IMG/VR virus record: IMGVR_UViG_2617270988_000009
Strand: one strand, 5' to 3'
DNA from: a virus
Lineage: Duplodnaviria > Heunggongvirae > Uroviricota > Caudoviricetes
Length of the DNA: 33,205 bases
Shown here one piece after another: positions 27,187 to 29,321 of the stretch (its first letter is position 1; each line of letters begins with the position of its first letter). The position numbers were made by a program, and so were the translations under genes. A model generated the notes under the pieces. The model was not told the DNA's origin. It made no database searches and worked only from the letters and a program-made list of their open reading frames with translations.

Positions 27187-27423
27187 TCGGTTTATGCTCA
27201 CCCCACCAGCCCTGCCGAAGTCAACGCCATCCAGGTTATGGAAAGAAAAAGAACAACCAGCATTAGTGAAAATGAAATACCGACGATTACACAAAGGCCC
27301 TTCGCCAGCATTATGAGTTTGTCTGACATCTTTACCCCTTAATAGCAGTAATTAACCGGGCAACCACCCATAAAAACGGAATCAGCCAGACCAGCAAAAA
27401 TTTCCAGTCCGTTTTTATCATCT

Positions 27424-28119
27424 TCATGCTGCGGTAGCTCTCCATGCAGCAAGCAGACCAGCAATCCACTGAACACCTTTTGGGGTGAATTTAACCTGCG
27501 TAAAAGCATGACCATTGCCCGCCTCGCCCGTTTTCACGCTAAACCGCCCCGCATCCAGGTGATGCGAGTAAGGCGTCATTTTTCCAGCGAGGCGATACAT
27601 TATTCCGTTCTCCAACAAAAACAGCCGGAAATCGGTTTCTTTGATACCGAGTAACTTAGCAACTTCCCGGAATCCCATCAGACCAGATGCTTCAACATAG
27701 TTATCAACAAATTCAGCCTTCGGCGCTGCTATTGCCAGTTGATTTTCCAGCACTGCTTTCTGTTCAGCCAGTTTTGCCGCAAATCGCAACGCCTCAGGTA
27801 AAGTCCGGGGGATCTGAATACCATGCATCGCTTTGAGTCTTGCCAGCACAGAACGACGAACGGCCTTTGACTCCCTCATGCCAACGAGCATCATCTGGTC
27901 AAAATCCAGATCATAGTATGCCGTTCTTGTCTGGTTATTGTTTAACCGGAATTTTTTTCCGGTTCCATCAAGCTCTAGCTCATCCTCAATTTTTGCAAGA
28001 AACTTACGCGGTTCATGAGGGACTTCTCCGGCTTCTGCCCGGGCTGGATTAATAATGTTATTCAGAAAATCCAGACTACTCATGGATATTTCATGATCGA
28101 TAGAAATCATCTCTTTCAT
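27424..28119 (-). CDS. phage antirepressor-like protein (KilA-C / Ant domain), inserted between endolysin and Rz
   Basis: C-terminal region ...PKAEFVDNYVEASGLMGFREVAKLLGIKETDFRLFLLENG... resembles the KilA-C antirepressor domain. Confidence 0.6.
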   Translation of the reverse strand: MKEMISIDHEISMSSLDFLNNIINPARAEAGEVPHEPRKFLAKIEDELELDGTGKKFRLNNNQTRTAYYDLDFDQMMLVGMRESKAVRRSVLARLKAMHGIQIPRTLPEALRFAAKLAEQKAVLENQLAIAAPKAEFVDNYVEASGLMGFREVAKLLGIKETDFRLFLLENGIMYRLAGKMTPYSHHLDAGRFSVKTGEAGNGHAFTQVKFTPKGVQWIAGLLAAWRATAA

Positions 28120-28392
28120 GGTTGATTCCTTTTAGTGATGAACCCTGCGCACAGGAATAACCAGCCCAAAGAGGGTTAACCAGACCACTGCCGGTTATCC
28201 ACCAGGGCTCATCCTGAAAGGTTCTTTGGTTTATTTACGCTTGTGCGAAGCACAGAAATGACAAAGGCACCATTACGGTGCCTCTGCGTGAAATAATCTG
28301 CCTAACTTTATTCACTTACATTTTGCCAGTTCGCAGGATTTCGTGTTATCCGCCCGCGCTGGCCAACGTCATTTTTCAGCAAAATATTCTGC

Positions 28393-28926
28393 TTATCTGT
28401 CGATTCCCCAGCACGCCAGAGCGCTCTCCTGGTCACGACGGGATACCTGACCATAACAGTTATTTGAGCGAATACGGCAGTCTCTGCCACCGTCCTTAAT
28501 CCACCAGCGAATCGCTTCGCAGGCACCTTTTCGATCTCCTGCATTAATTCGTTTATAAAACGTCGACGGGAAACACTTACCTGGGCCAATGTTGTAAGGA
28601 CAGAATGACGCAATACCCGCTTTCTGGGGTTCAGTCAGTGGCACTTTGATGTTTTTCGCCACCCATGCCAGCGCCTTATCACGCTCAATGGCGTTAACCC
28701 GGTCGCATTTTTCCTTCGACAACTTCATGCCCGGAACGACAGGTTTACCATCCACCAGGATGGCACCGCGGCAGATGGTCCAGATACCCGCGCCATCACG
28801 GTATGCCGTGGTGTGGTTACCTTCCTTTTCATCCAGAAACTGGTCGAGGATTTCAGGCGCAGGCGCACCTGCGGCAATCAGCGCCAGAACGGCAGCCGAC
28901 AGGCCGTATTTGATTTTGGTGTTCAT
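28393..28926 (-). CDS. R: endolysin, T4-lysozyme-like muramidase with N-terminal signal-anchor-release (SAR) segment
   Basis: Hydrophobic Gly/Ala-rich N-terminus (LSAAVLALIAAGAPAP) followed by the lysozyme catalytic region E..EG...AYRDGAGIWTICRG. Confidence 0.85.
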   Translation of the reverse strand: MNTKIKYGLSAAVLALIAAGAPAPEILDQFLDEKEGNHTTAYRDGAGIWTICRGAILVDGKPVVPGMKLSKEKCDRVNAIERDKALAWVAKNIKVPLTEPQKAGIASFCPYNIGPGKCFPSTFYKRINAGDRKGACEAIRWWIKDGGRDCRIRSNNCYGQVSRRDQESALACWGIDR

Positions 28927-28976
28927 GGATATTTATCAGGGTTTATCGATTTCAAATCCCTGGATATGTTAAGTCT

Positions 28977-29321
28977 TCAGGCCAGCGGTGGAGTCTTCAG
29001 AGAACCAGTAATTATTCCCGGTAGTTTTCCTCTGTAGGTTATCAACACATCCTGCGCCTCTAAAATTACGGGGCGCTTTTCCGGCAACGGACCATCCCCT
29101 TCACATAACCCGGCAGCAACATCCATGAAAAACTGCTTCGCCTGCTTTTTCGCCTCAGCTTCGTAAAACTCCAGCGTGGCATCTTCAGTACGGTCAAGAC
29201 TAATCGCCACATCTGGCAACAACAGTGACGGATACCCACCAATTTCCAGTGCCACAGTAACAGTAATCTTATTCGGGTAATTATTTATCCCTTTAACAAC
29301 CAGTTCGTATTTTTTCTTCAT
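28977..29321 (-). CDS. hypothetical protein (114 aa) between holin and endolysin
   Basis: Six-frame ORF on the late strand filling the S-R gap; no recognised family. Confidence 0.45.
   Translation of the reverse strand: MKKKYELVVKGINNYPNKITVTVALEIGGYPSLLLPDVAISLDRTEDATLEFYEAEAKKQAKQFFMDVAAGLCEGDGPLPEKRPVILEAQDVLITYRGKLPGIITGSLKTPPLA

Follow-up and report, generated by a model that had tools for sequence, protein, structure and literature searches.

A candidate structured leader RNA ahead of exchangeable accessory genes in the lysis cassette of a lambdoid Escherichia coli prophage

Are the genes that lie between the lysis genes of a lambdoid prophage parts of the lysis machinery, or is the lysis operon a place where accessory genes come and go? 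The question is raised by a 33,205-nucleotide (nt) stretch of a tailed-phage genome (Caudoviricetes; IMG/VR record IMGVR_UViG_2617270988_000009), hereafter the window, to whose positions all unassigned coordinates refer. All genes of its lysis region lie on the minus strand and read, 5' to 3', holin S, ydfR, endolysin R, a 273-nt gap, ant, the small open reading frames (ORFs) o31 and o43, and Rz with embedded Rz1. The initial annotation had described a lysis cassette interrupted by accessory genes, and the pinholin, signal-anchor-release (SAR) endolysin, KilAC gene and Rz/Rz1 are indeed present in that interrupted order. Comparison with about 200 related loci overall, with the window lysis proteins mapped onto 87 loci encoding Ant relatives, points to an explanation that we hold to be probable as a whole: the window contains the lysis cassette of a Shiga toxin (Stx) phage-like lambdoid E. 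coli prophage without stx, into which two accessory modules have been set, one of them swappable cargo that is marked, and would be gated, by a structured leader RNA.

A conserved leader ahead of exchangeable genes

The gap between R and ant is bipartite, its first ~86 nt going with R, as they are kept in an ant-less phage, and its last ~115 nt going with ant. Over 146 nt, this leader is invariant (100% identity) among 27 E. coli-type loci with differing flanking genes and 99.3% identical in one more; its identity is 90% in L032, where no lysis genes adjoin ant, and ~77% before the unrelated ant of phage BP-4795. A pattern search with its invariant ends (CCTTTCAGG, 60-90 nt, CACTAAAAGG) matches at least 120 IMG/VR contigs, with 55 versions of 85-94 nt among the matches listed; the versions always end 6-11 nt ahead of a start codon and their orientation is fixed. 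A blastn search of 50,697 deposited phage genomes finds the leader in 305, among them 933W, VT2-Sakai and the O104:H4 phage; the matches span Stx1 and Stx2 phages, P13374, P22-like Salmonella phages and a Klebsiella phage. None of the records listed annotates an RNA feature at the leader.

The genes that follow the leader comprise at least nine domain architectures, namely KilAC, P22_AR_N+ORF11CD3, Rha+ORF11CD3, Rha alone, KilA-N and KilA-N+P63C, and further AntA, TerB, HNH_3 and T5orf172/MUG113; the nearest genes upstream are mostly spanins and endolysins. Most loci carry a clear Rho-independent terminator upstream of the leader, followed by a GC-rich hairpin of varying sequence; the equivalents in the window, a terminator-like hairpin and the small hairpin P0, are weaker. 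In P13374 (L211), the Stx2a phage of the O104:H4 outbreak, two copies of the leader were found (2145-2261 and 3509-3622 of that locus), one between R and the P22_AR_N-type ant, the other after Rz and before a Rha-like 'regulatory protein'. On contig L131 (oriented), the leader (~747-840) and an HNH_3 gene stand upstream of holin S (~1377-1568), and on other contigs it follows a DNA methylase gene, tail genes or a Q-like gene. In the P22-like Salmonella phages SPN9CC and SE1, a leader with 93-97% identity to that of L104, which is of the Rha type, directly follows the endopeptidase/Rz gene and precedes a 228-aa gene; the 228-aa product from a related locus (L122) has a Rha domain. These phages differ from the window in the slot, which lies after Rz and before the small terminase gene rather than between R and Rz, and in the cargo family. 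The interval between Rz and the small terminase gene is also what we take to be the position of rha in P22.

Two long-range helices define the predicted fold. Helix A pairs 28229-28223 with 28172-28166, and helix B pairs 28221-28203 with 28147-28128, its consensus (CCUUUCAGGAUGA.CCYUG with CARGG.UCAUCACUAAAAGG) including the Shine-Dalgarno (SD) sequence at 28133-28127. The 5' strand of helix A varies among versions (CACAGAA, CUCAGAA, CCAAGAA, CCAAAGA, CCGUAGA and others), its partner being an internal segment of the UUCUGUG type. Among 54 pattern-anchored versions (set A2), 96% of the cells in the alignment are paired, compared with at most 53% when the partner strand is slid; helix A is 98.6% paired, with four of its seven pairs changed on both sides, and helix B 99.1%, with six pairs changed on both sides. 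A covariance model (R1) was built from A2, and R1 copies upstream of Ant homologues that had been gathered by protein similarity alone gave a further set of 29 distinct versions (A3), in which 91.7% of the cells are paired, against at most 60% with slid partners, and 18 of 24 pairs have changed on both sides; none of 500 shuffles reached the observed values. Pairs next to the SD change in step, CUUU/AAAG becoming CUUA/UAAG or CCUA/UAGG. R1 detects a leader immediately ahead of almost every Ant homologue collected by protein similarity and finds a single copy in the window, where the leader has a minimum free energy of -43.1 kcal/mol (z=-3.1) and a paired SD. Alternative inner helices (C/D) are partly supported. 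A mini-ORF within the leader (ATGAGCCCTGGTGGATAA) was rejected, as it is not conserved across the variants and lacks spacing from an SD. Overall, the leader is a well-supported and apparently uncurated structured RNA.

We compared the leader with known RNAs. The 4227 models of Rfam 15 gave no match to it, whether in the window (E<=1) or in six other leader-bearing loci at the position of their leaders (E<=5), and this holds for C4, c4-a1b1 and isrK (RF01695, RF03163, RF01394) throughout the window region at the former threshold; two weak isrK matches (~20 bits) lie on the opposite strand elsewhere in the six loci. The same three models all match the Q-anrP interval of Gifsy-1 (34131-34329), which served as positive control, and R1 finds nothing in the Q-lysis region of Gifsy-1, its best hit reaching 7.7 bits. 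Since the c4 and isrK models miss the leader and R1 misses Gifsy-1, the leader was assigned to a different RNA family, and its membership in the c4/IsrK system was rejected. In Gifsy-1, the terminator read-through transcript of isrK-orf45-anrP stays untranslated unless opened by a short RNA (PMC4825925). The window resembles this system, and c4 of P1 and N15, in having a late-region antirepressor-like gene behind a terminator and a structured leader; it differs in that an upstream ORF like orf45 and any sign of a trans-acting short RNA are absent there, and the Gifsy-1 locus lies just after Q, not in the lysis cassette. Within Gifsy-1 itself (L213, minus strand), the C4 match falls between isrK and anrP, where orf45 has been described, and from its sequence IsrK looks like a part of a P1 c4-type system. 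AgvB/AsxR and the Pas small RNAs (sRNAs) were likewise considered for the gap and rejected, since they map close to the esterase gene and outside the gap: AsxR is located just 3' of stx2AB, and the Pas genes of such prophages lie between the esterase gene and the holin-lysozyme operon (2026 preprint). Within the literature searched, neither the sequence string nor the topic returned a description of the leader, and the Hfq-CRAC supplements contain no entry for the leader region.

Accessory modules in a P21-type lysis cassette

Judged by sequence, the lysis genes of the window have the features of a P21-type cassette of pinholin, SAR endolysin and embedded spanins (Table 1). The holin product begins with MYQMEK, whose two in-frame Met codons form a dual start (MYQM) as in class II holins of the S21 family. 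The endolysin is a predicted SAR lysozyme, with a Gly/Ala-rich N-terminus (MNTKIKYGLSAAVLALIAAGAPAP; also given as YGLSAAVLALIAAGAPAP) and the catalytic motif E-8-D-5-T reading E..GNHTTAYR-D-GAGIW-T. Rz1 is embedded in the +1 frame of Rz and has the lipobox LVVSAC. For Rz, a GTG start at 27201 is inferred, which overlaps the o43 stop as GTGA, with ATG 27186 as an alternative. An NCBIfam search yielded no family for any of seven proteins.

Table 1. Features of the lysis region and its surroundings in the window
Feature	Position	Strand	Evidence or remark
Esterase (NanS-p-like)	32091..30211	-	SASA domain; DUF1737 and DUF6645 on its flanks
DUF826 ORF	29863..29618	-	
Holin S, P21 type, 71 aa	29541..29326	-	PF04971 E=1.9e-32; phrog_9876 and phrog_20, holin
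ydfR (DUF1327), 114 aa	29321..28977	-	PF07041 E=2.4e-45; phrog_406 E=4e-64
Predicted SAR endolysin (lysozyme) R, 177 aa	28926..28393	-	PF00959 E=3.3e-24
Non-coding gap R-ant	28392..28120	-	273 nt
3' trailer of R	28307..28392	-	89.5% identity after R in ant-less Stx2_EH2201, which does not keep the remainder of the gap
Terminator-like hairpin	28251..28287	-	Hairpin scan; 12 pairs, U-rich tail
Small hairpin P0	28239..28251	-	GCTT-CGCAC-AAGC
Predicted structured leader RNA of ant cassette	28114..28229	-	Covariance model R1, 92.8 bits, E=1.7e-20
KilAC-domain 'Ant' gene, 231 aa	28119..27424	-	PF03374 E=2.7e-28, residues 125-224
o31, single-transmembrane ORF, 31 codons	27427..27332	-	phrog_6632, weak, E=1e-4
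o43, single-transmembrane ORF, 43 codons	27329..27198	-	phrog_4906 E=6.6e-24
Rz, i-spanin	27201..26728	-	PF03245 E=2.9e-39; phrog_13
Rz1, o-spanin lipoprotein	26975..26769	-	PF06085 E=6.9e-21

The gene order as such is not new, since many Stx-type prophages have it as their standard layout and S-R-ant-Rz-Rz1 is already annotated in 933W: the RefSeq record lists S, R, ant, Rz, Rz1 and bor, with ant noted as 'similar to Ant antirepressor of bacteriophage P22; possible regulation of host cell lysis'. The same layout is found in BP-4795, phi-O153, VT2-Sakai and P13374. Ant families were reported in 126 of 279 Stx phages surveyed (PMC8136144), and the ant module is whole in 194 and partial in 1705 of 5426 complete E. 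coli genomes, numbers that speak strongly against a chance arrangement. The Stx phages 933W, VT2-Sakai, BP-4795 and P13374 share with the window the P21-type S, R and Rz/Rz1, an 'ant' in the R-Rz slot, the gap with leader (79% identity over the 273-nt gap in BP-4795), and an o43-like ORF before Rz. They differ in their ant, an unrelated P22_AR_N+ORF11CD3 gene of 189 aa, and in lacking o31; 933W furthermore lacks ydfR. Absence of stx genes from the window makes the prophage an stx-less relative of these phages.

Does the lysis operon therefore act as an insertion site? The initial annotation had proposed so, and synteny comparison bears this out for ydfR, which is present or absent at an exact junction, and for the R-Rz slot, the content of which is swapped, though not for the small ORFs, which are probably not cargo. 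Where ydfR is present, the junction reads GAGTAAAGCGATG-ydfR; where it is missing (933W, L019), it reads GAGTAAGCTGATG-R. The ydfR ATG sits 4 nt past the S stop and thus takes the S-coupled start position, so that R is displaced 50 nt downstream. The R-Rz slot exists in three states: with the KilAC gene of the window, with the unrelated P22_AR_N+ORF11CD3 'Ant' (BP-4795, 933W, P13374), and without ant. In the ant-less Stx2_EH2201, the R-Rz interval holds only a strong terminator and an o31-like membrane ORF of 33 codons. E. coli-type loci, with Ant 95-100% identical to that of the window, are composed of S, ydfR in some, R, Ant, o31, o43, either 0, ~220 or ~900 extra bases, and Rz/Rz1, while Ant homologues of 62-85% identity in Serratia, Lonsdalea and many IMG/VR contigs are encoded ~170-200 nt downstream of Rz/Rz1, before the terminase genes. 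Collectively, these comparisons support the view, at the level of sequence, that accessory genes are gained and lost within the lysis operon. Two independent modules are set into the P21-type core: ydfR, and an ant cassette placed between R and o43-Rz-Rz1 that consists of the terminator-like hairpin, P0, the ~115-nt leader and the KilAC gene; o31 probably belongs to the ant cassette. A relic of Rz or of a lost N-terminal ant domain was excluded as the origin of the gap, since tblastn detects no Rz sequence in its 273 nt and the 231-aa architecture of Ant is conserved across genera.

The lysis genes of phage 21 are contiguous. The window shares with that phage the 'P21 holin S' family PF04971, a SAR-type lysozyme and an embedded spanin pair, and differs by 345 nt (ydfR) and ~1.2 kb (gap, ant, o31 and o43) of intercalated sequence. 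Comparison with morons, a concept that stems from the lambdoid phages HK97 and HK022, is likewise instructive: as in morons, the extra genes are present or absent among close relatives between conserved late genes (ydfR being absent from 8 loci). The pairing of an own promoter with a downstream terminator that characterizes morons is not seen, as the window hairpin precedes ant instead of following it, and the genes that come after ant overlap it; base composition of the cassettes is unremarkable, and they share a structured leader, which is foreign to the moron definition.

Some features of the surroundings are recorded here. A strong terminator-like hairpin (13 pairs and a U-rich tail; 29579-29608, minus strand) lies between the DUF826 ORF and the holin start. 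The upstream end of the window carries three tRNA genes (32967-33205) and a match to the STnc100 sRNA (32698-32887, 132 bits), separated from the esterase gene by an AT-rich stretch of ~600 nt. Directly after Rz, a 74-aa ORF (MKKLLVTVKPFQG...; 26480-26704, minus strand) without Pfam family has a clear homologue at the equivalent place in Stx2_EH2201; beyond it, an AT-rich patch (GC 0.32) extends over ~25950-26250.

Products of the intercalated genes

The 114-aa ORF between S and R had been considered unknown; its position was correct, and it belongs to the DUF1327/YdfR family, the profile match covering positions 1-92 of 93 of PF07041. The family is narrow, with 274 homologues, and among the source-named matches listed all are from Escherichia or Shigella at 60% identity or more. 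PGAP labels close copies 'YdfR family protein', beside 'rrrQ: lysozyme'. Of the 5426 complete E. coli genomes, 3006 have ydfR, and all loci examined place it between the holin and endolysin genes. In an AlphaFold model (pLDDT 63.5), residues 1-73 form a beta-beta-beta-alpha core predicted with confidence, and the tail is disordered. Like the Qin cryptic prophage of E. coli K-12, the window has a YdfR-family gene adjoining a prophage lysozyme gene, rrrQ in Qin; the K-12 protein has 103 aa compared with 114 aa in the window. We know of no ant cassette in Qin. For K-12 YdfR, binding to the catalytic half of RNase E and co-purification of RNA have been reported (2026 study, PMC13232886), and by family membership together with this report an RNA-related role is the lead for YdfR of the window. 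Longer variants of 176-211 aa (PhiR5_1 = L001, 4104-4739; L026/L027) share ~112 N-terminal residues and are prolonged at the C-terminus by a helical stretch; in PhiR5_1, a third small ORF (38 aa) stands between o43 and Rz. Some database homologues (P0010, P0067, P0085, P0089, P0039) are called as fusions, either PF04971+PF07041 (173-187 aa) or PF03374+PF07041, which probably are frameshifts or gene-calling read-through at the 4-nt S/ydfR junction.

Ant aligns to phrog_63 (anti-repressor Ant) at profile positions 122-359 of 431 only, and its residues 1-124 gave no Pfam match, with neither AntA, Bro-N, KilA-N nor P22_AR_N found. As the 231-237 aa form is conserved across Enterobacterales among 1368 homologues, it represents a real architecture and not a truncation. 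PDB sequence searches with Ant and YdfR returned nothing meaningful, hence no solved relative of Ant by sequence. In an AlphaFold2 model (pLDDT 76), a helix/strand domain at the N-terminus is followed by a long helix (107-144) and, at the C-terminus, by a domain resembling a winged helix; the best fold matches of Ant are DNA-binding winged helices. From this model, Ant looks like a dimeric DNA-binding protein with two winged-helix-like domains on a long helix, rather than a proven antirepressor. With a KilAC domain only and no recognised N-terminal module, 'antirepressor' is a transferred name; in the R-Rz slot this annotation covers at least two unrelated protein families, which makes conclusions based on the name unsafe. 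No membrane segments are predicted in Ant or YdfR, and profile searches place the two in KilAC and DUF1327/YdfR.

Two hydrophobic ORFs of 29 and 43 codons had been noted in the ant-Rz interval. Both exist, the shorter being o31 read from an internal ATG, with a full length of 31 codons. The o31 ATG overlaps the ant stop as ATGA, and o43 starts 2 nt after the o31 stop. Coding conservation is good for ydfR and ant, judged by their homologues, and also for o43: its frame is intact in 17 DNA variants, with a ratio of nonsynonymous to synonymous polymorphism (pN/pS) of ~0.3-0.5 in the more diverged ones. For o31 the coding evidence is weak, since non-synonymous changes equal or exceed synonymous ones in four of the five variants that differ (six variants in all), and the copy in L032 is shortened by a stop. 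An o43-like ORF follows both ant types, including the unrelated ant of BP-4795, and the o31-like ORF of Stx2_EH2201 (MMAEKLSTWKFILIWLVFVIMASGYFIGQIRWW; L003, ~2097-2315, minus strand) stands before Rz and ends at the Rz start. As an o43-like ORF thus follows both ant types and an o31-like ORF accompanies Rz in the absence of ant, the small ORFs look Rz-side, and o31 and o43 are probably residents of the Rz side and not cargo. The ORF in Stx2_EH2201 suggests that small transmembrane proteins are regular partners of Rz in this lineage, and a membrane role tied to lysis is a reasonable alternative for both.

Competing explanations and implications

How would the ant cassette be expressed? No convincing LexA box or sigma-70 promoter was found in the gap. 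With no recognisable promoter of its own and a hairpin ahead, the cassette would be transcribed mainly by Q-modified polymerase; in the proposed scheme it would be carried only on the Q-antiterminated late transcript from pR', together with S, R and Rz, which would read through the upstream hairpin. Within the leader, the long helix B would pair CCUUUCAGG... with ...CACUAAAAGG; as this hides the SD, translation of the cargo would be kept low, or made conditional on opening or cutting of the helix. That the leader represents an undescribed class of cis-acting phage RNAs, gating interchangeable Ant, KilA-N, Rha, AntA, HNH and TerB cassettes within late transcripts of lambdoid phages of enterobacteria, the main Stx phages among them, is a proposal to which we give about an even chance.

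Several points weigh against this scheme. The function of the leader is deduced entirely from sequence, as are late-only transcription, gating and every protein function, and a weak promoter in the gap could have escaped the consensus scan, in which the coding strand from 26500 to 30200 gave no sigma-70-like site. The pair counts ignore kinship among versions, the pattern used to gather A2 already fixes the helix ends, and the model used to align A3 already includes helix B; helix A lies outside this model and is 80% paired in A3. As the strands follow each other in the order a-b-a'-b', helix A crosses helix B, and the predicted structure is either a long pseudoknot, with both helices coexisting, or a switch between two alternating states. 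The leader also occurs away from lysis genes, after DNA methylase, head and tail genes, which makes the lysis cassette a favoured site and not the sole one. Finally, the chained start/stop overlaps from ant through o31 and o43 to Rz fit a lysis-related role, at least for the small ORFs, as does the persistence of o31- and o43-like ORFs without ant.

These last observations lead to the possibility that the intercalated genes are themselves lysis machinery, with YdfR, Ant and the small ORFs tuning holin triggering, SAR-endolysin release or the spanins. Besides the overlaps and the retention of small ORFs next to Rz, it draws on the constant location of ydfR at the S-coupled start and on the wording of the 933W record. 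However, close relatives with the same S, R and Rz can do without ydfR and ant, other phages encode the Ant family after Rz or at a distance from lysis genes, neither protein has a predicted membrane segment, and the fold matches of Ant and the RNase E binding and RNA co-purification reported for K-12 YdfR (PMC13232886) point elsewhere; we consider a lysis function unlikely for the set as a whole, and reasonable for o31 and o43 alone. Could Ant instead be a true antirepressor, made late to inactivate CI-type repressors and thereby lock the lytic decision or cross-induce co-resident prophages? The KilAC domain and the PHROG label would fit, the hosts are commonly polylysogens, a genome holding as many as 8 copies of module fragments, and trans-acting antirepressors are known among Gifsy prophages (PMC3121763). 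Yet the name derives from domain transfer only, residues 1-124 contain none of the modules searched for and Ant has no solved relative by sequence, post-Q expression would come too late to induce the own prophage, and the same leader slot carries HNH nucleases, TerB and T5orf172, which are not antirepressors. This function therefore appears somewhat unlikely.

Two further explanations concern the leader itself. It might act as a DNA homology patch or recombination site for cassette exchange, its RNA fold being incidental: the element marks the 5' boundary of the swapped genes, its flanks are conserved while the gene changes, and in E. coli loci it is more conserved than the adjacent coding sequence. 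Selection for a homology patch would not yield the compensatory double changes that keep two helices across 29-54 versions, and the fixed orientation and start-codon distance, with the SD inside a helix, likewise speak against it, so that a purely DNA-level role seems distinctly improbable. An RNA leader and a DNA patch are nevertheless not mutually exclusive, as a conserved leader would also promote homologous exchange and may thus ease the exchange of cargo. Descent from the c4/IsrK antisense system that controls ant in P1, N15 and Gifsy-1 would account for the shared logic of a terminator followed by a translationally silent structured leader before an antirepressor-like gene (PMC4825925); given that the Rfam models recognise Gifsy-1 and neither the window leader nor the six others, that R1 in turn fails on Gifsy-1, and that no orf45-like ORF precedes the leader, such a descent is hardly credible.

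The added value of this locus lies in the leader and not in the gene order: it marks swappable cassettes in or next to the lysis genes of medically important phages, and offers a simple sequence handle for finding them. If the leader is a switch, a phage or host signal would decide whether the cargo is made during lytic growth, with RNase III cleavage, the RNA-associated YdfR and ribosome traffic as candidates. This leads to the testable hypothesis that phages silence potentially harmful DNA-binding or nuclease cargo on the same strong late transcript that carries stx and the lysis genes.

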